Virus record (IMG/VR): IMGVR_UViG_3300023443_000129
Span: 1-39,772 of that record
Source: a virus
Length of the DNA: 39,772 nucleotides
Strand: one strand, 5' to 3'
Shown: piece by piece, positions 2,913 through 30,423 of the stretch
Layout of the letters: each line of letters begins with the position of its first letter
Position numbering within the stretch: the stretch's first letter is position 1
The notes under the pieces: generated by a model
Seen by the model: only the letters and a program-made list of their open reading frames with translations
Database searches by the model: none
What the model was told of the DNA's origin: nothing
Position numbers and translations under genes: made by a program

Positions 2913-4330
2913 GCTATTGCCACCTTGCCGTAGTTAATTGAAGACCACTTTTGAATCTTGGGGAATCTTAAACCCATCATTATACAGTCCGACTCGTTAG
3001 GTGATGTTATCTGGTGTCTGCTTAACATCTCTTGCTTGGTCATGATCTGTATAAACCCGTTGTTGTTTGGCTTCTTTGGTATCCTGCATATCTCAGACTT
3101 AAGGTTCTCAATGTTCTCAATGTTGGAGCTAAATGATATCAACTCCTCTACATCTATTACCTTCTCATCATTGATTACCGCTTTATAAGTCCTGTAACAC
3201 CTGTCTCTAAGATTCCAATAATACTGAGCACGTTTATTCTTGAACATGTGCTTATTAAGTGTTTGAGCTTTAGAGTCTTCTATATCCTGGTACTTATCAT
3301 CAGGATTATCCGGCGACTCACTACCTTTGAACATCTCCAGCTTGATCGACTTACCATCTAGGGCTGCTGCGATCTCTCGCTTAAGACTTGCCCCTAATCC
3401 GTCACCGTCCCAGCTGAACACATCCACGTTATTCTGAATAGCTGCTTCTAATGCTACGTCACAGTTATCGTTTACATCTTTCTTATCGTATGACTTTGAC
3501 TCAAGTATAACCGAACCATGGCGTATTGCGTAGGCTGCTGCATCTTTACCCACATCACTTGGATCGTGGCTTAGTATCTTCTGCCCTCTTGGCTTAAACC
3601 CTAGCTTAATGTGAGCATCAATACATGCCTCGAACCACTCTTGAGGGATTATCGAGTCTTCAACCTCATCATTAAATCCGCCTTCCCAGATATGATTGTA
3701 CTTAGCTGTTGACCAGTTCTCTTTGTTATCTAGTCGCTGCTGGTCTAGTTCCTCTGGAAAGAATGGATTGTCTTTGTGGTTGATTAGAATGATTAGCCTT
3801 AGATTGTCCTCATAGTATCCGTTCTTTAGTATCTCTTTGTGAAATGGATTAATGAACTCTTGGCTGAACGGATCTGAACTGGATTGAGGGTTGGCAGTAA
3901 ACCAGCATTCTGAACCGGCTTGTCTAATGGTAGGTAGTAGATCATCGATACTCTTCTGAGACATGGTTTGAGCTTCTTCGACCCATGAGTACTTGAATCC
4001 GTGAGCTGATTTTATAGCTGCCGTGTCTCGACTCATTCCTTTGTATCTGAAGCCACCACCACCGGTAAAGTCTATCTTACTGTCTGTAATACTTGAGCCA
4101 TGAACGTCTAGCCTATCTATCTCTGCCTTGAGTAGAGCGTGTACCGAGTCACTGATAGAGTTCTGATACTCTCTTAAGCACATTACATTAGCTTGCTCTG
4201 TCTGGGACTTCATAATGAGAGCGCCACCTACACCCATTGATTTGCCTGAACCCCTGCCACCTATGATTATCTTTAATCGCTTAGGTGTGTTGACTATAGG
4301 TAGTAGCTTACTCGGAAGCTGTAGGCGCAT
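2909..4330 (-). CDS. terL: Terminase large subunit
   Basis: 473 aa with Walker A IIIGGRGSGKS and Walker B-like YSWVEEAQ, plus a C-terminal nuclease-size domain. Overlaps TerS by 23 nt. Confidence 0.85.
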   Translation of the reverse strand: MRLQLPSKLLPIVNTPKRLKIIIGGRGSGKSMGVGGALIMKSQTEQANVMCLREYQNSISDSVHALLKAEIDRLDVHGSSITDSKIDFTGGGGFRYKGMSRDTAAIKSAHGFKYSWVEEAQTMSQKSIDDLLPTIRQAGSECWFTANPQSSSDPFSQEFINPFHKEILKNGYYEDNLRLIILINHKDNPFFPEELDQQRLDNKENWSTAKYNHIWEGGFNDEVEDSIIPQEWFEACIDAHIKLGFKPRGQKILSHDPSDVGKDAAAYAIRHGSVILESKSYDKKDVNDNCDVALEAAIQNNVDVFSWDGDGLGASLKREIAAALDGKSIKLEMFKGSESPDNPDDKYQDIEDSKAQTLNKHMFKNKRAQYYWNLRDRCYRTYKAVINDEKVIDVEELISFSSNIENIENLKSEICRIPKKPNNNGFIQIMTKQEMLSRHQITSPNESDCIMMGLRFPKIQKWSSINYGKVAIA

Positions 4331-4691
4331 TCATTACCTCTACTGTCCACTTATGTTCTTGAGGCTTGCCGCCTGGTCCTGATATCTCTTGGTCCTGCTT
4401 ATCATGGAATCCATGCTTACCTAAAGCCAGCTTAACAATGTTGCTGTTTAGGTTACCTAGTAGCCCACCATTCATCAGAACTCTTTGCTGACTGGTCTTA
4501 CATTGAGCTAATATCTCCGAAAACTCATTGTCTTCTTGACTTGCCCAATCATATAGTGTTGATTCTGCTATCTTTATCGCACAAGACATTCCGACCACAC
4601 TGGGTATGGCGTCGTCATGCTCTTTGTAGTTCGCTATGTATTCCAAAGCCTGCTCTACGATCTCTGGAGTGTACTTAGTTGGTCTTGCCAT
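4308..4691 (-). CDS. terS: Terminase small subunit (N-terminal HTH type)
   Basis: 127 aa. MARPTKYTPEIVEQALEYIA...STLYDWAS is the usual small-terminase HTH opening. Sits immediately upstream of terL. Confidence 0.65.
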   Translation of the reverse strand: MARPTKYTPEIVEQALEYIANYKEHDDAIPSVVGMSCAIKIAESTLYDWASQEDNEFSEILAQCKTSQQRVLMNGGLLGNLNSNIVKLALGKHGFHDKQDQEISGPGGKPQEHKWTVEVMNAPTASE

Positions 4692-5318: not shown

Positions 5319-5732
5319 TTATTCCACCGTCCATGAGCTAGTAGTCCAATCTAAAGTTAGGGTCTCGGCTGATGCCAAGGTTAAATCTTGACCAAAGTCG
5401 AACCAAAATACAATGGGGTCTAATGGGCTTGCCGGGGTGTTGTTGTAAATACCCACATGTCTAAACGTTGCTACTGCCCCTGATGCCGTCAATACGAGAT
5501 CAGTAAATAGATGCGTTAATATGCCTGAAGTCTGCCCACTTGAGTTTGTGGTGAGGTCACGAGTACTTAGATTCGTGTAGCTTATTTCGGTAATGTCAGC
5601 CAGCACAGCATTAGCCACAACTGGAATATTAGCGTGAGTGGTCAGGAATACGGTAAATTGGTCAGTGGATGACGTGTAAACCCCTTCTTCTTTATCCTCT
5701 ACGACTTGATAGAACTTCGTTGCTGCGACCAT
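5319..5732 (-). CDS. Fibre-associated hypothetical protein
   Basis: I chose the ATG at 5732, which overlaps the fibre stop (TAATG) and gives 137 aa. The C-terminus TSSWTVE echoes the fibre C-terminus TTWTVQ. Confidence 0.55.
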   Translation of the reverse strand: MVAATKFYQVVEDKEEGVYTSSTDQFTVFLTTHANIPVVANAVLADITEISYTNLSTRDLTTNSSGQTSGILTHLFTDLVLTASGAVATFRHVGIYNNTPASPLDPIVFWFDFGQDLTLASAETLTLDWTTSSWTVE

Positions 5733-7534
5733 TATTGTACCGTCCACGTAGTTGATGAATCTGTTTGGTTAGTCCAGGTTGTTGCTGCGTTAGCCTGGGC
5801 AGACCATGAAGTAGATGAATCCGCTTGTACTGTCCATGGGTCAGATGAAGACGGCAATGCTATATCTGTTACTGAGTAAGTATAGCTTACAGAGTCAGCA
5901 CTTAAAACCCTAGCTGTCAACAGTCCTGCATCGGTAACTGTGTAAGTATATGCCACCGTATCGGCTGTTAGTGTCTGCCCTAGATTTAAGTCAGCATCCG
6001 TAACTGAGTACGTATAAGGTACGGTCTCTGTTGTTATCACACTACCAAGCAGAAGGTTTATATCTGTGACTGCGTAGTTGTAGGCTGTGGATTCGGCGAC
6101 TAATACCCGATCTACTTGAAAATCTATCGCCGTGGCAGTGTATGAATATGATACTGATTCAGCTGTTAGAGTGAAGTCGCCTACAGGCGTAAAAGTAAGC
6201 GTTACGTCCGTTGGCGTGTAAGTGTACGATACACTCTCGGTTACAAGGTTTATGCCTCTTTGCAGGTCTACAGCTGTTGGTGTATATGTGTACGATACTG
6301 ATTCAGCAGTTAGAGTATTGCCAGCTTCATCAGCCTCCTCAATCAGAAGCCCCCACATTTTAAGCCCGGTGCTTGGCTCGGCTACTGAGAATTCTGCGTC
6401 ATAACCGTCAGAGGTAAATTCAGTCAGTGTGCCCACGTAACTCTCAGTACTACCCTCGTTTAGCGAGTCAAACATGGTCGCGCCTGAGATGGTGCCGTTA
6501 TTCATTACTGTAGCGCCATCTTCAACGCTCATTGAATTACAGTATTGATTATCTGCGTCTGCTGTTAGTAGTGATGCACCTGCTACGGATGCAAAGGTGT
6601 CAAACGCTGTATTCTCAGTCATCATCCCGTATAGAAAACCAGGCGTGAAAGAGGCTCCGGAGTAATCAAAGCTACCTGTTGCGGTGGGCATGGTATCGGT
6701 GAAGACTTGAATAGCTGGGGAGTTTGTAAGCGTTAACGCAAGATAAACTGTAACGTCACCACCTGGACTACCTGAGTTTATATTGACGTCCCAGCCTGCT
6801 GCTACTGGGGTATCTAAGTATGACTCCCACTGGGTTGCATCTGAAATTGATTGTGCTTGTGATGAGGCTGTAGTGCCTGCTTCGAACGTTTCTTGGTTGG
6901 CTCTCTGGGTGGATGCGTTGTTATTGCTTCCCCACGTTGAACCGGCTTGATTGGAATTAATGAAATCAACTACGCCTAAATGATAGCTGGCTTGTGTTGC
7001 AATGCCTGATGTGGCGTTTGATGCAATGTTGCCCAGAAATACAAGGCTTGGAGCTGCTGAGAATCCGAGACCATTGAACGTGTTTCCGCCGTTCTCGTTA
7101 GTGTAAGTCCCTACTCCAGCCTCAGCTACATCATCACCACCAATCAAAATACATGTTACAAAAGCAGCTACACCGGCATTGTTGTTTGTTATGTCGATTA
7201 CAACGTTATCAGTATTGAATGAGTCAAAATCACCCTCATAAGCTAATGTACCAGCGCCTACCAGGGCATATAAGCATTTAGTACTAGATATAGCTCTCTG
7301 GGTATTAGACGTAGCTAAGCCATCCTCATCAGCTACAGCTATCCCGAAATTGCCTGTACCGTCCGTAACTCCCCAACCCATAGCGGCGTCGACTGTCAAA
7401 GTAGAATCGGCTGTACAGAGCGTAGGAATGAATATGGCAGCTTTTGGAGTACCAAACCCAGATACAGTAAAGGTCTCTAAGCCGGTATCCGTTCGGATAG
7501 CCTGCCTGACAACTGCCATCCTAAAATCAGCCAT
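5732..7534 (-). CDS. Tail fibre-like protein with internal tandem repeats
   Basis: 600 aa, rich in Thr/Ser/Gly/Asn. Carries seven 22-aa repeats and four 10-aa Trp repeats at the C-terminus. Confidence 0.6.
   Translation of the reverse strand: MADFRMAVVRQAIRTDTGLETFTVSGFGTPKAAIFIPTLCTADSTLTVDAAMGWGVTDGTGNFGIAVADEDGLATSNTQRAISSTKCLYALVGAGTLAYEGDFDSFNTDNVVIDITNNNAGVAAFVTCILIGGDDVAEAGVGTYTNENGGNTFNGLGFSAAPSLVFLGNIASNATSGIATQASYHLGVVDFINSNQAGSTWGSNNNASTQRANQETFEAGTTASSQAQSISDATQWESYLDTPVAAGWDVNINSGSPGGDVTVYLALTLTNSPAIQVFTDTMPTATGSFDYSGASFTPGFLYGMMTENTAFDTFASVAGASLLTADADNQYCNSMSVEDGATVMNNGTISGATMFDSLNEGSTESYVGTLTEFTSDGYDAEFSVAEPSTGLKMWGLLIEEADEAGNTLTAESVSYTYTPTAVDLQRGINLVTESVSYTYTPTDVTLTFTPVGDFTLTAESVSYSYTATAIDFQVDRVLVAESTAYNYAVTDINLLLGSVITTETVPYTYSVTDADLNLGQTLTADTVAYTYTVTDAGLLTARVLSADSVSYTYSVTDIALPSSSDPWTVQADSSTSWSAQANAATTWTNQTDSSTTWTVQ
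5855..6316 (-). repeat. Coding tandem repeat, seven units of about 66 nt (22 aa, one unit 26 aa)
   Basis: The core [AT][ED][ST]V.Y.Y..T starts at aa 410, 432, 458, 480, 502, 524 and 546 of the 600-aa protein. Confidence 0.8.
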
Positions 7535-13071: not shown

Positions 13072-13737
13072 TTACTCCATATTCAAACGTTCTCGAATAC
13101 TACTTAGTGCTTTAAGCTTAGCCTTAGAATCTGACTTTCTGCTTAGATCTTCTAATGCTATTGGACTGCCTTCACTTGTAATTGCTAGCATCTGTTTTAC
13201 AGAGTCAGTATTTTTATCTAGCCAGCCAAGATTAATAGCCGCGAGAGTGTCCTGGTGTTTCTTGCCCAGCCTTTCTTCCAAACCTAATCCGGTAGGAGCA
13301 GTGTAGAAATACTCGGCCTGCTTGCCTTCTAGCTTGGCCGTTTCAACACTCTTTTTATATGACTCCAAGAATGCCATTCTTGCAGATATCATATCGCCAC
13401 GTTCTAACGAATCACTACAGGCACCCATACCATCCATCATTTGCTGATTAACATAGCCGCCGTCTGATTCGCCCTTGGGCAGTCTGTTCCATGCTTCCTC
13501 TGGCGATGGATAACCTAAGCTCTCATTGATCACACTTAGTATATCGTGGGGGGTTGGTGCTTCGCCTGATGACCTTACATAAGCGTCTATGGCCTTAGTC
13601 ACCACTTGAATAGAATGGTCTGATAGTAAGTGCCACCACATATCAAAAGCGTCTGGTCCTACTGGCTTGCCGAATCTTGATACACTCATTGCAGCGTTTA
13701 ATGATCTGCCTAGCTCATTTCTATCTGACTCATTCAT
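13072..13737 (-). CDS. Replication-module protein (possible organiser or helicase-loader type)
   Basis: 221 aa. The start overlaps the initiator stop by 1 nt. The functional guess rests on position only. Confidence 0.4.
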   Translation of the reverse strand: MNESDRNELGRSLNAAMSVSRFGKPVGPDAFDMWWHLLSDHSIQVVTKAIDAYVRSSGEAPTPHDILSVINESLGYPSPEEAWNRLPKGESDGGYVNQQMMDGMGACSDSLERGDMISARMAFLESYKKSVETAKLEGKQAEYFYTAPTGLGLEERLGKKHQDTLAAINLGWLDKNTDSVKQMLAITSEGSPIALEDLSRKSDSKAKLKALSSIRERLNME

Positions 13738-14537
13738 TAGTTTAGCTCTCCATCGAATGTATTACCGTTGAATGTTGCCGAGGTTGGCTGTCTTTCCCAT
13801 GAGTTTACTTCGCTATCAAAGCCGGTCTTAGGCGCTTCTGTTATTACCTCATCATTCCATAGCTCGCCGTTAAGGTAAGAGGATGGATTGGGTATAAACT
13901 TCTTATCAGTAGAAACGTATGCAATCTGTAGGTGGCCAGCTATCACACCGAACTGCTCGAGACTTGGCTTTAGCCTTTTCCATATCTTTTCGCACTCTTT
14001 ACGCTTAGTTTTCTTTGGGTAGATATTCCAAAACCTATCAAAACCTACGTATTCAGGGGCCTCCAGCTTTGCCACTCGAGTAGTCGCTTTCTTAGTAGAC
14101 TTAACTTCGGCACGTTTCTTAGTCCTTTCGTCGTAGTCCCACATTCTAAGCATCATAGCGCCCTTTCTATTGTCGCCATTTCTAATCATCGTAGGAGACA
14201 CCATGTTGCACCCAGACCTAACCCTTTTTAAAAAGCCCTTTTCATAAAGCTCCTTAAAGACTTTCTTAACAACAAAGATACTCACACCCGATTGCTCTGC
14301 TATTTCTTCTTGAGTGCCTTGTATTAAATTTGATCCATCTCGAGATCCAATAACCCAAGCCAATAAATCAGTTGTCTTTGCGCTGCCACACTTAATGTAG
14401 CTCGAGAGCATCTCTGCATATGCCTTCTCCCATCCTGACTTTTTGGCGCTATCTATAAATATCGCCACATCTAACTCTTCGCCTGTTATCTTATCTATGA
14501 CCATATAAGTTTCTGGGTTGAAGTAATCGTAATCCAT
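13737..14537 (-). CDS. RepL-like winged-helix replication initiator with a C-terminal FW.IYPKK domain
   Basis: The N-terminal 140 aa parallels plasmid RepL (ID.ITGE...W.KAY...L....K..DLL.W......N.I.GT..EIA...GVS...V.K....L.E.GFLKR...G..MV.P). The C-terminus carries FDRFWNIYPKKTKRKECEKIWKRL...NPSSYLNGELWNDE. Confidence 0.55.
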   Translation of the reverse strand: MDYDYFNPETYMVIDKITGEELDVAIFIDSAKKSGWEKAYAEMLSSYIKCGSAKTTDLLAWVIGSRDGSNLIQGTQEEIAEQSGVSIFVVKKVFKELYEKGFLKRVRSGCNMVSPTMIRNGDNRKGAMMLRMWDYDERTKKRAEVKSTKKATTRVAKLEAPEYVGFDRFWNIYPKKTKRKECEKIWKRLKPSLEQFGVIAGHLQIAYVSTDKKFIPNPSSYLNGELWNDEVITEAPKTGFDSEVNSWERQPTSATFNGNTFDGELN

Positions 14538-17845: not shown

Positions 17846-18016
17846 TTACTCTCCTTGTTTAGATTCTATGCAGTGAGGACAGCCAACCATGAACCCGTGA
17901 GGGCAAGTAGCAGCATCCTCTGCCCTGCACATCTCTTCGATACACTCTTGCTCTCTGCATCTGTGCCAACGCTTACCATGAGGGAATATTGATTTATCCT
18001 GCTTGTCGTCACTCAC
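17846..18016 (-). CDS. Cys-rich small protein (56 aa, GTG start)
   Basis: GTG at 18016 lies 6 nt after AAGGAGAGAG. Sequence SDDKQDKSIFPHGKRWHRCREQECIEEMCRAEDAATCPHGFMVGCPHCIESKQGE. The stop is 2 nt before the next ATG. Confidence 0.45.
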   Translation of the reverse strand: MSDDKQDKSIFPHGKRWHRCREQECIEEMCRAEDAATCPHGFMVGCPHCIESKQGE

Positions 18017-18039
18017 TTACTCTCTCCTTTGTTAATGGG

Positions 18040-18139
18040 TGGAATGAGCGGGTCGTGACTCCCGCTGGCCTACACTCTACTGCGCAGAGGCCCCCTATCT
18101 AGCAATCCCAGTGGACGCCCACCTTCCTGCTACCATTCC
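18040..18139 (-). ncRNA. tRNA-like clamp module 1 (non-cloverleaf interior)
   Basis: On the minus strand, 5' GGAATGG pairs with 3' TCATTCC followed by an unpaired A. The hairpin GCGGG-AGTCACGA-CCCGC sits in the T-arm position. The interior does not fold as D or anticodon arms. Confidence 0.25.
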
Positions 18140-18165
18140 ATTGTTCTTTAATTTGCTTATGAAGG

Positions 18166-18287
18166 GGCTATACCGGGCAGGATTCGAACCTGCTACACAA
18201 GGGTTTATTAGGATTGAGCGTCCATAGTCCCTCTGCTCTACCGGAATGAGCTACCGGCGGTAAGTTTCTCAGGCTCACCATATAGCC
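18166..18287 (-). tRNA. tRNA-derived element with non-canonical insertions (pseudo-tRNA or tRNA-like ncRNA; no anticodon assignable)
   Basis: Canonical elements: D-arm TAGCTCATTCCGGTAGAGC (18235-18253), anticodon-type stem GAGGG/CCCTT, variable loop GTGTA, and T-arm GCAGG-TTCGAAT-CCTGC (18177-18193). Non-canonical: the anticodon loop is 25 nt, and the acceptor 5' strand is split by a 23-nt hairpin insert. Confidence 0.35.
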
Positions 18288-18460
18288 ACCACATAAACAA
18301 ACTATTGGAGTCGGGTATCTCACTCAAGAGACTTTCAGCTAACCGAGGAGCTACCTCAATCTCTACGTTTCAGGTATCAGCCAGGGTACGCGCACCACCA
18401 AACATATAAAGGTGATTTCCCGTCACCACTCGTACCTGTCTCACGCTACAGGGATGCAGA

Positions 18461-18625
18461 TTAAAATCCTGCCATCTCTCTTTGAAACCTTATAGCCTCT
18501 TCTGTCGCTTCAATTTGAGCGTTTACAGCCTTCATCAATCTGTACCACCTGATAAGACCTATAACCCCGTGAATGACCATCGAAGCGCCAACTATGATGC
18601 ATGTAATCGAAACTATGGTATTCAT
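18461..18625 (-). CDS. Small membrane protein (54 aa)
   Basis: MNTIVSITCIIVGASMVIHGVIGLIRWYRLMKAV... The ATG is 3 nt after the upstream stop and preceded by AAGGGG. Confidence 0.5.
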   Translation of the reverse strand: MNTIVSITCIIVGASMVIHGVIGLIRWYRLMKAVNAQIEATEEAIRFQREMAGF

Positions 18626-18971: not shown

Positions 18972-19000
18972 TTGACGGTAATAAGTTATTACCTTACTAT
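18972..19000 (+). promoter_or_regulatory. Rightward early promoter TTGACG-17 nt-TACTAT
   Basis: -35 at 18972-18977 and -10 at 18995-19000, 36 nt upstream of the first plus-strand ATG. Confidence 0.55.
18977..18993. promoter_or_regulatory. Perfect 17-bp palindrome GGTAATAA-G-TTATTACC (candidate operator)
   Basis: It fills the spacer of the rightward promoter. A related palindrome lies at 22631-22647. Confidence 0.45.
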
Positions 19001-26251: not shown

Positions 26252-26577
26252 TGTTAAAGAAGGTAATAAGTAAACTAGCAGAGCATGACTTTCCTGATTA
26301 TATCGATTTAAGTATCGAGTCTAATCAATTACAGGTATTGGCTAAGCAGATAGAGAATAATCACCTGTTGGATATTAAGACTGAGAACAACGCAGAGCTG
26401 GCTAGTAATGCTCAAACTCAGCTAACTGAGAACTCAATATTCAGGGAGCTGATTAAACGAATGATTCCTGAGATGAGCAGAGACGATATTAATATGGTGT
26501 TTAAGCACTGTAGAGATCTTGGGATTACGATTACCAAGAACTCGATAACCGTAACCCCTAAGTCTACGACTGTGTAG
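26251..26577 (+). CDS. Hypothetical protein, last rightward gene
   Basis: 108 aa. The 3' end overlaps the 3' end of the tailspike by 14 nt. Confidence 0.55.
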   Translation: MLKKVISKLAEHDFPDYIDLSIESNQLQVLAKQIENNHLLDIKTENNAELASNAQTQLTENSIFRELIKRMIPEMSRDDINMVFKHCRDLGITITKNSITVTPKSTTV

Positions 26578-28498
26578 CTGTACCGCCCGTCATTGTCCAT
26601 GCACTATTGGTAAATAGTAACTCTGCCGTATGACCTGCGCTAGTAAAGGCTATCGAGGTGAATCCTAGTAAGCTAGTTGGGGTAAGCGTTCCAGTACCCC
26701 CCGCACCTGATAACATCACTACAGTCTTACGTTGACCATTAGACCCGTTAGCTAGTGTATATGCGTCACCTGCCGTGGTCGTTATGTGGGTTACTTGTGA
26801 TGTTACATCAACCGCCCCAGCACCCTCTATAGCTTGAGCTGTCTGGTCAGTGACTATAACGCCTCTGAATTTAGTCTGGTCGTTTGCATTACCTATCAAA
26901 CTTACGCCTGTAGTGGTTTGCATCTGTGTTTGACCGGCTTCACCCGAACCCGTAGCAGCGCCACCTTTAATTACTGCATTGCCGCCGTTCTGGTCAGTAC
27001 CTTCTCCATCACCACCTAACATAGTGTTAGAACCGCCAGTACCGTCTTTACCTGTTCCGCCTTGAGTGGCAAAGGTTCTACCTGTATTAGTAGTTATCTG
27101 AGGACTAGGTTTAATTGAGTGCATAGCGTAAGTATTCGCACCAGCTAGGGAGAGCACATAGTTATTAGTACCAGCGTCTTGCGTGTTATCCGCGTCAGTC
27201 GTAGCTAGTAAGGTAACGTGGTTCCTGGTAGAAAAGGCAGTCATGTTTAAGTCAGGCCCGTCCCCAGGACTAGCTCCGTTTCTCTCACAGTACAAAGTAG
27301 CGTGATTACCTATAGACTGTGTACCAGAAGCACCACCTATATTCATGCCACCAGTTAGATTCTCCTGAAGTATACCCATAACGATATTACAGGCATCACC
27401 TAATAGCAGGTTAATACCCCAACCTGTATTTGATAGAGCGTTAAAGTCTATTAGGGTAAGTGTATTTGAGCTAGTAGCAGAGTTGGTCCCTTGAAAGGAC
27501 TGTATTCGTATACCATCGCCACCATTCAAAACAGAATCTATTTTATCAAGCTTACCTGAGTTGCCAGCTCTCCAGTAAATACCGTGAGATGAGCAGGATT
27601 TAATTCTAATATCGACTAGATGAATATGAGAACCGGCATCAACATCAATTCCTATTCCTGTCAGGGCCGTGCCATCTATTTGAAACCCTCCTATTCTAGC
27701 AAACTCGCCAACAGTTAGAGAAACCGCATCAAAAGTACCTGTGGGGATTATCTGGCTGTCCTCTCTCGCGCCTGATCCAAATACTCCTACACGCTTGCCC
27801 CATGATAATTTGGCATTAGTAGCGAACTTACCAGCGCCTATAGTCATATCTGATCGACCGTCAAAGGATACTCCTACAAACGTATAGCAGTTGTTGAAGG
27901 CCGCTGTAGTTACTGTTGCGTTTGTATTGTCAATGTAAGCGCCAAACTGTTTAATTCTATAGATGTCATCAGTGAATAAACCTTTAGCTTGATGAGTGTC
28001 GAGGTTTATAAACGATCCCGCATCAGGAGTACCAGTTGCAGCCGCGACAACATCGTAATCATTGCCGCCGCCATCCCCTATTGAGTAATAACCTAAAGTC
28101 CTTAGATGGTCTCCGATGTTTAAAGTAGTGCTAGCTACCATTAAGGCTACAGTTTCGAATAGCTCAAACGCCTCCCCGGCAAGGGCCTGCTGCGGGAGCG
28201 GGCCATGAAACCAATCGGCATTACCTGTTGTATCAGCATCAGCATCTACAGCGTTTGTATATAGAGCTATCTTGTACTCTTGGTCGGTGAAAGGCGTGAA
28301 TATGGCGCTACTGCCATTCAACGGATAACCCGCGCTATCTAATGCGCACTTAGCTAGGGCACCTGTGCCAGTACTAGTCGAGTACATATTAATAGCTACG
28401 TTAGACGTATTGTAGAGCTTTAGGAAATACCCGCTAGCTAGTGTGCCGTCTGTCTTCTGATACTGTATTGTTGCGCCGCTTATTGGGGTAAAAGACAT
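26564..28498 (-). CDS. Tailspike with a pectate-lyase-like right-handed beta-helix
   Basis: 644 aa. LGYYSIGDGGGNDY...IKQFGAY.DNT, then many Gly/Asn-rich beta-helix-like rungs. Last gene of the late operon. Confidence 0.6.
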   Translation of the reverse strand: MSFTPISGATIQYQKTDGTLASGYFLKLYNTSNVAINMYSTSTGTGALAKCALDSAGYPLNGSSAIFTPFTDQEYKIALYTNAVDADADTTGNADWFHGPLPQQALAGEAFELFETVALMVASTTLNIGDHLRTLGYYSIGDGGGNDYDVVAAATGTPDAGSFINLDTHQAKGLFTDDIYRIKQFGAYIDNTNATVTTAAFNNCYTFVGVSFDGRSDMTIGAGKFATNAKLSWGKRVGVFGSGAREDSQIIPTGTFDAVSLTVGEFARIGGFQIDGTALTGIGIDVDAGSHIHLVDIRIKSCSSHGIYWRAGNSGKLDKIDSVLNGGDGIRIQSFQGTNSATSSNTLTLIDFNALSNTGWGINLLLGDACNIVMGILQENLTGGMNIGGASGTQSIGNHATLYCERNGASPGDGPDLNMTAFSTRNHVTLLATTDADNTQDAGTNNYVLSLAGANTYAMHSIKPSPQITTNTGRTFATQGGTGKDGTGGSNTMLGGDGEGTDQNGGNAVIKGGAATGSGEAGQTQMQTTTGVSLIGNANDQTKFRGVIVTDQTAQAIEGAGAVDVTSQVTHITTTAGDAYTLANGSNGQRKTVVMLSGAGGTGTLTPTSLLGFTSIAFTSAGHTAELLFTNSAWTMTGGTATQS

Positions 28499-30423
28499 TA
28501 TCTGGATTCCTTGCGTCTGAGTAGTTTCTGCATAGCGTTTAGTGCGTTCGTGTCGTTTATGCCTCTGGCCTTCTCTAGCTTCCTAGCTCCAGCTCCTACA
28601 ACGATATCAACTATTCCCGCTTGGCCTCTTGCTGCCTGCTTTACAGTTGATTCGAATTCACCCTTTAAAGAAGTCCTAGCCACTGCTCCGAACCTTTCGT
28701 CTAGAGTATTAGCGAACTGAGTTAAGTCTCTAGCATCAACATCAAAGGTTGCGCCTAAGTTTCTGGCTGTTCTATCAATATCATCAAGCGAGTTATCTAA
28801 GGCTATGCGACTCTTTCTGTTGCTTAATAAGCCTCTTAAGTCTTGGCCTATAGCTTTGTCAGCACCGGGTTTAAACACGTTAATAGAGCCGCCTAAGATC
28901 CTTTCGAACTCGTTCATAGTACCGATAGCATTACTTAGCTTGTCGTTAATGGCTGCGTATGGCTTAGATACATCACGAATAGAGTCATTCAAAGAGGCCC
29001 TAACAGCTTTAGCAAAGTTCTTGCCTGTTTTGGGTAGCCCTTTAGCTTGCTTATTGAAGTCTATAAGGTCATCTAATTGCTTTTTAAGGTTGTGCGCTCT
29101 GGCTGCGTCTACCGGGCCTGGCTCAGATAGTAAATCTACAACATCCTTAACCATCTTTTGAGAGGTTGGATTCTTGGATATCTCAGAACCTACAAAAACA
29201 CCTCTCTGCTTAAGAAAGCTATTAAGCTGTCGAGTATCACCCAGCACCTCATCAGGTATATTAATTCTAAGGTCGTCTAGCTTACTGAATAGAGCAGCTT
29301 CAATAGGCTGCGTATCAATCTCTAAACCCTTAAGACCTCTAACTGTTCCTGGCCCTTCTAGTAAGTTCTCGCCAGGCTTAGATGATTTATTGGCTAGCTT
29401 ATTAAGGTCTTTTCTTAATGTGTCCGCCTCTTTCCTTATGAATTGGAATCTACCTAAAACATGCTCCCCTGGTATATCAGTAGGTCTTGAGTCTTTGGCC
29501 TTTGAGGAGTCCGATAGTATCTGTCGAGTCATCTTCAGCATTTGATTCATGTCGCGCTTAGTAGACGTATTAGCACCCTTAGCCGCTGATACATCGCCTT
29601 TCCTAAAGCCCTGCCTCTGTAGCTCTACGCCTAGATCATCAGGGACTATCTTGCCCTGCTCTAATCTAATATCAGCTAAGAAGTTGTCAGTACCGCCGCG
29701 CTTAATCTTGCCCACTACGATCTGATCAACTACTTGCTCGACTGACTTTCTGCCCTGGATTGCAGGTAAGGTATCAACGTCATCAACAATAGATCCAAAG
29801 TCTATACCACGCTTAGTAAGTTCCTTTTCAAACACTGGAGCAGGTAACCCGGTCTTCTGGTCTATTAGGTTTTTATTCTTACCAAACTTAGCTGTAATGG
29901 TTTGTAGTGCCTCTCTGCTAGCCGCTGCTACTGGCGCTCTAGCTGCTTGAGATATTGCGCCTAACTCTACCGCTACAGGGGGAAGGGCTGCTAATGGGGC
30001 TAGAACCTCGCCTAGCTGGCCTAATCTCTCTTTGCCTAGCTCTGTAGTAGGAGGAAGAGTGCCTCCGCTAGCCCTTAATGCTGATTGCTCAGCTATCCTT
30101 TCAGCTGATTCTCTAGCCTCTTGAGGGCTGTCCGCTAATGGTCCAAAGCTTCCCCCTGCTATCTCTTTCACTAGCTGTTCAAGTGTGCCGCCAACACTGC
30201 CCAGTAGCCCGGTAGTCGCACCGGTTCCTATGGCTCTAGCAGTCTCTGCAATAGCTGTTAATTGATCGGCTAGACCTCTATGGGCTTCTGGTGCTGGACC
30301 TTCGCCCACTCCAATATCACCACCCGGGTCGAATGACTCAAGATCAAACGTAGGCTCTGGCTGAGCAGTAGATAAGTCAAAGCCGCTTGATTCAGGCTTA
30401 GCTGTGGATATGTCAAAAGCCAT
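28498..30423 (-). CDS. Large internal/ejection-type virion protein
   Basis: 641 aa, Ala/Leu/Gly-rich and helical. Its position is analogous to the P22 ejection proteins. Confidence 0.45.
   Translation of the reverse strand: MAFDISTAKPESSGFDLSTAQPEPTFDLESFDPGGDIGVGEGPAPEAHRGLADQLTAIAETARAIGTGATTGLLGSVGGTLEQLVKEIAGGSFGPLADSPQEARESAERIAEQSALRASGGTLPPTTELGKERLGQLGEVLAPLAALPPVAVELGAISQAARAPVAAASREALQTITAKFGKNKNLIDQKTGLPAPVFEKELTKRGIDFGSIVDDVDTLPAIQGRKSVEQVVDQIVVGKIKRGGTDNFLADIRLEQGKIVPDDLGVELQRQGFRKGDVSAAKGANTSTKRDMNQMLKMTRQILSDSSKAKDSRPTDIPGEHVLGRFQFIRKEADTLRKDLNKLANKSSKPGENLLEGPGTVRGLKGLEIDTQPIEAALFSKLDDLRINIPDEVLGDTRQLNSFLKQRGVFVGSEISKNPTSQKMVKDVVDLLSEPGPVDAARAHNLKKQLDDLIDFNKQAKGLPKTGKNFAKAVRASLNDSIRDVSKPYAAINDKLSNAIGTMNEFERILGGSINVFKPGADKAIGQDLRGLLSNRKSRIALDNSLDDIDRTARNLGATFDVDARDLTQFANTLDERFGAVARTSLKGEFESTVKQAARGQAGIVDIVVGAGARKLEKARGINDTNALNAMQKLLRRKESR

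Follow-up and report, generated by a model that had tools for sequence, protein, structure and literature searches.

Why should an early operon of a phage carry 444 nucleotides (nt) that encode no plausible protein? The question is raised by IMG/VR virus record IMGVR_UViG_3300023443_000129, whose positions 1 to 39,772 (the window, i.e. the whole stretch analysed here) represent the complete genome (~39.8 kb, circularly permuted) of an uncultured phage. On the minus strand, a gap at 18460–18017 separates the stop codon of an open reading frame (ORF) of 54 amino acids (aa; 18461–18625) from the GUG start of a 56-aa ORF (17846–18016). A reading made from the sequence alone (the sequence-only reading) had described this gap as ORF-free structured RNA with a rearranged module derived from a transfer RNA (tRNA) inside the early operon, and that description is confirmed by a comparison of ten loci, by folding and by tRNA calls. 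The gap is a real, conserved, folded, non-coding and strand-specific RNA inside an early polycistronic messenger RNA (mRNA), and its conserved part is the scaffold (two hairpins, H1 and H2, a stem of 24 base pairs (bp) and the linkers), not the tRNA-like modules. We looked for an ordinary tRNA call, non-conservation, a lack of compensatory changes and a conserved small ORF, the signs that the sequence-only reading had named as speaking against it, and found none of them.

ORF-free elements of 329–556 nt occupy the same operon position in ten loci, the window and nine relatives (L014–L019, L023, L029 and L030). Relatives were found from two proteins, the downstream 123-aa protein and the Cro-like protein, whose homologues in a large protein collection led to metagenomic contigs; L023 was added by an exact-word metagenome scan, whose three other matches were due to chance. 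The element has been seen so far in ten metagenomic contigs only: exact-pattern scans of IMG/VR gave one match, by chance, a scan of GTDB genomes with exact patterns gave chance matches only and, judging from the latter scan, prophage copies appear to be absent from the GTDB species representatives. RepL and the 123-aa protein, used as IMG/VR queries, yielded no useful relatives. The element is accessory, since a more distant contig with a Cro-like gene (L031) lacks it. The genes upstream and downstream of the element are not homologous between loci, and only short, non-conserved ORFs overlap the 444-nt gap, as seen from the ORF list and from comparison of the relatives. An ATG within the conserved stem meets a stop four codons later in L017 and is not an ATG in L014. 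The contig of L030 folds back on itself (3340–3500, 3940–4121), the end of the Cro-like gene and a 44-aa gene being duplicated in inverted orientation, and is probably an assembly chimera, so its element can be read on the minus strand only.

The scaffold and a variable domain are laid out in the window as follows, with the two module slots, cargo 1 and cargo 2, described further below.

18453..18460, minus strand: 5' boundary U-CUGCAU-N, directly after the upstream stop codon (UAAU-CUGCAU-N)
18435..18452, minus strand: hairpin H1, made of CCUG, a 10–11-nt loop ending GU(N)GAGA, and CAGG; present in 10/10 loci
18411..18427, minus strand: hairpin H2, GGUGA-CGGGAAA-UCACC; present in 8/10 loci, consensus GGYGA-CGGGAAA-UCRCY
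18305..18410, minus strand: variable multi-hairpin domain, including the helix CAGGTACG/CGTACCCTG; 96% identical to L015, unrelated in the other loci
18281..18304, minus strand: 5' strand of the 24-bp long stem, UAGUUUGUUUAUGUGGUGGCUAUA (inverted repeat I1)
18149..18172, minus strand: 3' strand of the 24-bp long stem, UAUAGCCCCUUCAUAAGCAAAUUA, in which the 19-mer TAGCCCCTTCATAAGCAAA is exact in 10/10 loci
18140..18148, minus strand: linker AAGAACAAU, which puts A(-2)U(-1) before cargo 2
18014..18035, minus strand: trailer UUAAC-AAAGGAGAGAG-UAA-GUG, the ribosome-binding site and GUG start of the next gene; invariant across loci

At the 5' boundary, CTGCAT is invariant in nine of the ten loci and reads ATGCAT in L030, despite the non-homologous upstream genes. 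H1 takes the form CCCG/CGGG in L029, a compensatory change from U-A to C-G. H2, which is missing from L018 and L030, has U-A at its third pair in four loci and C-G in the other four, with G-C or G.U at its first pair; only three loci (window, L015 and L016) have a T tail after it that weakly resembles a terminator. The multi-hairpin domain is closed by GGAGAG/CUCUCC in five loci, with variation through G.U only, and is absent in L030. The long stem is 91.3% paired across the ten loci (24 bp with two mismatches): 16 of its 24 pairs never vary, three are G.U, the U.U mismatch is invariant and the top two pairs covary. Its lower 20 bp are invariant in sequence, including the U.U mismatch and a U.C mismatch that switches from pair 17 to pair 18 or back between loci, which suggests a sequence-specific reader. 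Below the stem, the junction ACAAT|G is kept in the window, L015, L016, L018, L023 and L029. At the 3' end, N-CCA-UUAAC stands immediately 5' of the ribosome-binding site AAAGGAGAGAGUAAGUG; the same type of ribosome-binding site is found at other gene junctions and is therefore not specific to the element.

Several lines of evidence show that these parts fold as RNA. Across H2 and the long stem, 92.5% of cells are paired, as compared with 38–49% when the partners are slid by 1–3 columns. Both-sided changes occur at three pairs (the third pair of H2 and the two top pairs of the long stem), a level matched by only one of 500 shuffles. Because G.U pairs, three in the long stem and one in H2, work on the transcribed strand only, the structure belongs to that strand; as DNA, the long-stem repeat is only 79% complementary. 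The stem together with cargo 1 folds with z-scores of -2.8 to -6.1 in 10/10 loci, and whole elements have a mean folding z of about -1.7 versus about -0.2 for the adjacent coding sequence. The element is exactly fitted between stop codon and ribosome-binding site, on the coding strand of the operon. The MAFFT alignment of whole elements is trustworthy at the anchors only and the cargo regions are not homologous between loci, so ordinary covariation tests are inapplicable to the cargo.

Two further observations concern the long stem. In L029 (4148–4265), an extra hairpin module stands before it, bracketed by a duplicated UAGUUUGUUUA, which copies part of the 5' stem strand; the module may have been gained by duplication or recombination at the stem sequence. 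In the window only, the last codons of the upstream gene are complementary to parts of the element: GGCAGGAUUUUAAUCUGC (18456–18473) to the T-arm of cargo 1 (18176–18193; 83%) and GAAGAGGCUAUA (18491–18502) to the top of the 3' stem strand (18161–18172; 92%). The latter, as an alternative partner for the 3' stem strand seen in the window only, was treated as chance; the two matches could permit an alternative, translation-dependent pairing but, being confined to the window, are probably both fortuitous.

Cargo 1 sits on top of the long stem and was recognized in the window by both ARAGORN and the Rfam tRNA model. Its parts, checked base by base, are given here together with those strands of the long stem that the sequence-only reading had included in its module at 18166–18287.

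18173..18280, minus strand: cargo 1, a tRNA-derived module predicted to be non-decoding, with canonical D-arm and T-arm
18287–18281, minus strand: GGCTATA
18280–18258, minus strand: 23-nt insert T-GGTGAG-CCTGAGAAA-CTTACC-G
18257–18254, minus strand: CCGG, forming a 4-bp acceptor remnant with a second CCGG
between CCGG and GAGGG, minus strand: D-arm TAGCTCATTCCGGTAGAGC
18233–18229 and 18203–18199, minus strand: stem GAGGG/CCCTT
18228–18204, minus strand: 25-nt loop with an inner GGA/TCC helix, replacing the 7-nt anticodon loop
variable loop, minus strand: GTGTA
18193–18177, minus strand: T-arm
ending at 18166, minus strand: 3' strand CCGGTATAGCC

ARAGORN called a 'tRNA-???' at 18169–18260(-), with an anticodon that could not be assigned, and the Rfam tRNA model (RF00005) matched the same positions at 34.2 bits versus a cut-off of 29 (E = 0.0014 over the whole window). 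The inner 7-nt loop, CGCUCAA, has a G at the place of U33. There is neither a 7-bp acceptor with a free end nor a 3' NCCA: 4 bp of CCGG/CCGG, two acceptor pairs being non-standard in cmscan, are followed by the 23-nt hairpin insert and then by the 24-bp stem. In the nine relatives the cargo 1 slot is filled with unrelated sequence of 47–170 nt, and none of them has an orthologous tRNA at this position.

All the stems and loops that the sequence-only reading had placed on the minus strand were recovered where it put them, including the closing stem of its second module (our cargo 2) and the helix in which CAGGTACG (18438–18431) pairs with CGTACCCTG (18390–18382) around the hairpin at 18427–18411. 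Its emphasis has to be shifted, however. The module at 18166–18287, which it took as the centre of the region, is indeed tRNA-like but is not conserved, its slot being unrelated in relatives. The GGCTATA strand is paired as proposed but forms only the top 7 bp of the 24-bp stem, and the hairpins with shared GGTG arms and loops ending in GAAA do lie where described, although neither trait is a conserved feature. The interior of the second module, which had been called non-cloverleaf, folds with a four-arm cloverleaf topology.

That second module, cargo 2, lies between the linker and the trailer and was delimited from minimum free energy (MFE) folds.

18036..18139, minus strand: cargo 2, a four-arm tRNA-like module
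18139–18133 and 18047–18041, minus strand: 7-bp acceptor GGAATGG/TCATTCC, followed by A at 18040

In the window, cargo 2 reads AAU|GGAAUGG...GCGGG-loop-CCCGC|UCAUUCC|A-CCC-A. It has U8-A9 and the 3' tail A-CCC-A, its T-position hairpin directly adjoins the 3' strand, and its MFE fold is a cloverleaf with an over-long D-side arm and a non-canonical T-loop. Across loci the slot ranges from 0 to 154 nt. Six loci (window, L015, L016, L018, L023 and L029) have G(+1) right after ACAAU, and their 7-bp closing stems are all different (GGAAUGG, GGCGAGA, GAUAAGG, GGAAGAG, GGCGGGG and GUUUGGU). U8-A9 is kept in three of these six modules; in four, a 5-bp T-position hairpin abuts the acceptor and gives a 5+7 = 12-bp stack; and five have 3' tails of A-CCC-A, A-CCA, C-CCA, A-CCC-A and U-CCA, L023 having none. 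Bacterial ribonuclease (RNase) P recognizes its substrates by U(-1) and A(-2), by the ruler that acceptor and T-stem form, and by the 3' RCCA, which pairs with the P15 loop (PMC4919922). Since the leader, ruler and RCCA contacts match this description, cargo 2 appears to have the design of an RNase P substrate: the window module combines U(-1)/A(-2), G(+1), a ~12-bp stack and 3' RCCA, and the same design is found in L015, L016, L018 and L029 and, in part, in L023. The slot is bracketed by near-repeats, AUUAA(AG)AACAA and AUUAACAA (18150–18020 in the window, and in other loci), and L017, which lacks cargo 2, has a single fused AUUAACAAAGGAG at 4310–4350 that resembles an insertion footprint.

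Taken over all loci, the modules are unlike one another in sequence and vary in number, yet they are closed by stems and are often tRNA-derived. Three score more than 20 bits on the tRNA model, namely cargo 1 of the window (34.2) and cargo 2 of L016 (46.1) and of L015 (23); cargo 1 of L014 was also called by relaxed ARAGORN. In the tRNA-scoring modules both the D-arm and the T-arm can be aligned to the model; it is invariably the anticodon arm that is defective, each module having an anticodon region enlarged or inserted by 14–50 nt beyond the canonical size. The T-arm GCAGGUUCRAAUCCUGC recurs in different slots (window, slot 1; L015 and L016, slot 2), L014 having a variant of it in slot 1, and the motif GGTTCRA is about seven-fold enriched within elements (six occurrences in 4,071 nt, versus 17 in 83,778 nt outside). 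Judged by their sequences, no module of the ten loci can decode. The element thus appears to be a modular cassette, in which a conserved scaffold presents exchangeable, stem-closed modules that derive from tRNAs and are predicted to be non-decoding.

What such a cassette might do is best approached from its ends. We tentatively favour, at just short of an even chance, the view that it is a processing cassette, which RNase III and RNase P would cleave to release non-decoding tRNA mimics; we infer this because cargo 2 matches the RNase P contacts, UUAAC follows the CCA and the long stem has the size of an RNase III site. Host RNase III would cut the 24-bp stem (18281–18304/18149–18172), whose length is in the range expected for this enzyme (about two turns, 20 bp or more, mostly paired). 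Host RNase P would cut AAU|G before cargo 2, at 18140|18139, and 3' trimming would occur beside the encoded CC(A), near 18036. In Escherichia coli, RNase E cuts 1–3 nt after the encoded CCA (PMC2190699); here this place is taken by the AU-rich UUAAC that immediately precedes the ribosome-binding site. The cuts would sever the immediate-early cistrons for the Cro-like and membrane proteins from the downstream early genes, set free a stem-loop RNA carrying cargo 1 and a ~100-nt tRNA-like RNA (cargo 2), and create a new 5' end on the downstream mRNA, a few bases before the ribosome-binding site. Of the four roles that the sequence-only reading had suggested, an RNase P processing platform is thus the best-fitting, with the proviso that the fit is to cargo 2; its companion suggestion of an RNase Z platform is unlikely where a 3' CCA is encoded.

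Several points weigh against the processing cassette. Every nuclease has been assigned by inference. Some bacterial groups have no RNase E. Of the nine loci with cargo 2, three (L014, L019 and L030) have no AAU|G junction, and there is no CCA in L023 and L030; the whole-element folding z-scores are modest (mean about -1.7) and several cargo 2 modules are no more stable than shuffled sequence. Punctuation of the mRNA would need only one RNase P or RNase III site, so that 329–556 nt and up to four modules are left unexplained. Nor does the cassette explain why the lower stem is invariant in sequence and not just in pairing.

That surplus of RNA would be accounted for if the released RNAs were trans-acting decoys or sponges. 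They would engage a host factor that recognizes the elbow and acceptor of tRNAs, such as a defence nuclease directed at tRNAs or an enzyme of tRNA processing or modification, and the scaffold would be a platform for expression and exchange. We consider this unlikely, though less so than the other alternatives. It agrees with the accessory nature of the element, with the difference in module count between loci, with the retention of the D-arm and T-arm while the anticodon arm is always the altered part, and with the setting in an early operon of small, mostly unannotated, exchangeable ORFs. It also agrees with the complete replacement of modules between near-identical phages: the window and L015, with Cro-like proteins 93% identical and 5' domains 96% identical, have entirely different cargo 1 and cargo 2. 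However, an anticodon-nuclease decoy should retain the anticodon loop, which no module does, many modules lack canonical D and T loops (just the three mentioned exceed 20 bits), and no partner protein is encoded nearby. Moreover, the early region is mosaic throughout, with identical 20–40-nt patches at many gene junctions among these phages, so that cassette exchange is a property of the region and not of the RNA alone. It is equally doubtful that the element stands for a previously unrecognised class of phage non-coding RNA, a display scaffold on which tRNA mimics are swapped by recombination at the invariant stems to serve as trans decoys or sponges; if that were true, the locus would be an RNA-based, cassette-diversifying system of counter-defence or host takeover. 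The same mosaic patches could be taken to mean that the conserved blocks are leftovers of mosaic junctions and that the modules, with their tRNA ancestry and the T-arm that the window (cargo 1) shares with L015 and L016 (cargo 2), come from an ancestral pair of phage tRNA genes that is drifting. Such decay is improbable: there is no canonical tRNA among the modules of the ten loci, the lesions are concentrated in the anticodon arm and not spread, the closing stems are maintained with locus-specific sequences, H1, H2 and the top of the long stem show compensatory changes, and the invariant scaffold goes unexplained. Besides, with compact phage genomes one would not normally expect ten lineages to retain 350–550 nt of functionless sequence in one and the same place.

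The remaining alternatives start from the position of the element. An early, immunity-type operon after a Cro-like gene, with a RepL-like protein and no integrase, would suit a cis-antisense immunity RNA of the P1 C4, P4 CI or N15 CA type, excised by RNase P and pairing with sites on the same transcript; the closing stem with internal hairpins and RNase P-type ends would be in keeping with this, and variable loops, as the seat of specificity, would suit heteroimmunity. We give it a slim chance, given that the Rfam C4 model is unmatched even at E <= 10 and that complementarity of the cargo to 1.2 kb upstream and 3 kb downstream is not above chance (best ungapped matches, 11–13 nt); cognate and non-cognate duplexes have the same energy downstream (-77.3 versus -77.2 kcal/mol), a crude measure that would miss 6–8-nt loop–loop contacts. 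Slimmer still is the chance of a cis-acting antiterminator, a put-like RNA (another role proposed by the sequence-only reading) or a nut-like site at the position of lambda nutR/tR1. The element does lie one or two to three small genes downstream of divergent early promoters, and H1 and H2 are two adjacent conserved hairpins, but H2 is lacking in L018 and L030, the window genome has no second copy of the element, in the divergent early operon or elsewhere, and no conserved terminator follows it. By eye, there is also no boxA in the conserved blocks and no arginine-rich N-like motif in the first ORF of the divergent operon, and the long stem and tRNA-like modules would be left unexplained. The faintest chance goes to an element acting as DNA, whether an origin, a single-strand initiation site or a recombination site. 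A 24-nt inverted repeat with a variable spacer could be a recombination junction, and both the near-repeats around cargo 2 and the duplicated UAGUUUGUUUA around the extra L029 module could be viewed in the same light; against this, the part of the repeat that is not complementary as DNA is made up by G.U pairs, which exist only in RNA of the transcribed strand, iterons and tandem repeats were not found, and the fit between stop codon and ribosome-binding site is precise.

The element has several partial counterparts. Non-decoding look-alikes of tRNAs have been known in phages for decades (T4 RNAs C and D; P1 C4), are few and are mostly unexplained. By analogy, the element seems most like the operon-embedded, RNase P-processed tRNA-like RNAs of P1, P7, P4 and N15 and the stable tRNA-like RNAs of T4, and seems to differ from them in being a multi-module array with exchangeable cargo. 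The P4 CI RNA and N15 CA RNA have a tRNA-like closing stem and are excised by RNase P from a longer transcript; the stable RNAs C and D of T4 (species 1 and 2) are phage-encoded, tRNA-like and non-decoding, and are made by the tRNA-processing machinery. The C4 precursor of P1/P7 is cited as an RNase P substrate in PMC4919922 (its reference 206). The likeness to this group lies in a small RNA within a phage or phage-plasmid operon, a tRNA-like closing stem and excision by RNase P (predicted, in our case). Unlike C4-type RNAs, the element is 4–6 times larger and multi-module, has a 24-bp stem that they lack, shares no sequence or covariance-model similarity with them and has no detected target complementarity, and whereas T4 RNAs C and D sit among real tRNA genes, it has no real tRNA, its modules being carried on a non-tRNA scaffold in an mRNA operon. 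In the TMERs of gammaherpesvirus 68 and in engineered tRNA scaffolds, a non-aminoacylated tRNA-like body serves as a handle for processing or stability, with the payload at the place of the anticodon arm. TMERs need eukaryotic Pol III and RNase Z, tRNA scaffolds are man-made, and neither is homologous to the element. GOLLD and ROOL are large phage-associated structured RNAs, often found beside tRNAs; the element is smaller, with a conserved core of few simple helices. YrlA mimics a tRNA (PMC4201824): its D/T elbow contacts are intact, it is not free to decode and a long stem is attached to it. Its ends leave via the anticodon-side stem and its acceptor is capped, whereas the ends of the element leave via the acceptor side, and no gene for Ro60/Rsr (TROVE) was found among the window ORFs scanned. 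RNase P substrates within mRNAs are on record (PMC4919922). Together with tRNA punctuation and the early RNase III sites of T7, such RNase P-cut operon mRNAs resemble the element as structured spacers between cistrons for host nucleases (again a prediction here), but the known bacterial and phage cases are single short sites and not a 329–556-nt array of exchangeable tRNA-like modules.

The ten natural variants on one scaffold amount to a ready-made mutational series, in which the closing stems, the A-U|G junction, the N-CCA and the lower 20 bp of the long stem are the parts that must stay and the others may change. With this series it could be tested whether host RNase P and RNase III punctuate phage early mRNAs and whether tRNA mimics that do not decode serve as RNA decoys. 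The engineered tRNA scaffolds for stable RNA expression in bacteria might also have a natural counterpart in this scaffold.

Searches of the window and its surroundings place the element in the following setting. Except for the tRNA fragment, the element belongs to no Rfam family: a permissive scan (E <= 10) of the window region and the nine related loci gave no match to GOLLD, ROOL or C4, which speaks against the large ornate RNA class that the sequence-only reading had listed as a further possibility, and ARAGORN found no transfer-messenger RNA in the window or related loci. A match to YrlA (RF02553) at 13.9 bits versus a cut-off of 69, aligned via the T-arm only, was dismissed as noise. A match to HTH-XRE RNA on the opposite strand, at 18375–18425 (+), with 20.7 bits versus 49.8 and E 0.18, is probably due to chance; its basis, 14 nt complementary to hairpin H2 (AAAGGUGAUUUCCC), is not conserved, being lost in relatives with the GGCGA variant, and the match was rejected for this reason. 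The region with 20 kb around it had no DNA match in phage GenBank records, E. coli genomes or plasmids, and the two flanking small proteins had no exact match on record.

Transcription diverges near 19000, as seen from GC skew, and the first two genes on the minus strand, encoding a Cro-like helix-turn-helix protein and a small membrane protein, precede the element. No promoter-like site was found on its strand. The structural genes of the window include an SU10-type portal and major capsid protein, a terminase and a gp3-like small terminase, and its early region encodes NinG, YqaJ exonuclease, YopX and a RepL-like replication protein; no integrase, RNA-processing enzyme or tRNA-related enzyme was found among the window proteins scanned. 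The portal is only ~31% identical to portals of LUZ24-like phages, and LUZ24, which we considered as a tRNA-cluster precedent, has no annotated tRNA in its first 16 kb. The N-terminal half of the RepL-like protein (13737–14537, -) is ~31% identical to RepL of 24–41-kb plasmids of Proteus, Providencia and Arsenophonus. This plasmid-like RepL, together with the lack of a detected integrase in the window, suggests that the phage could be maintained as a plasmid, possibly in a gammaproteobacterial host. Three ORFs of 600–644 aa (5732–7534, -; 26564–30423, -) have no Pfam match, and the 600-aa ORF, the one among them that the PHROG scan covered, has no PHROG match either.

The gene junctions of these phages are themselves stereotyped, with the form AACAAGGAGAG(AG)UAA-n-AUG/GUG (window 17856, 18029, 20618 and 31039; junctions of L014–L030), and as a result many small early proteins end in ...QGE. 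Cassettes that are otherwise unrelated are parted by identical patches of 20–40 nt that resemble recombination linkers.

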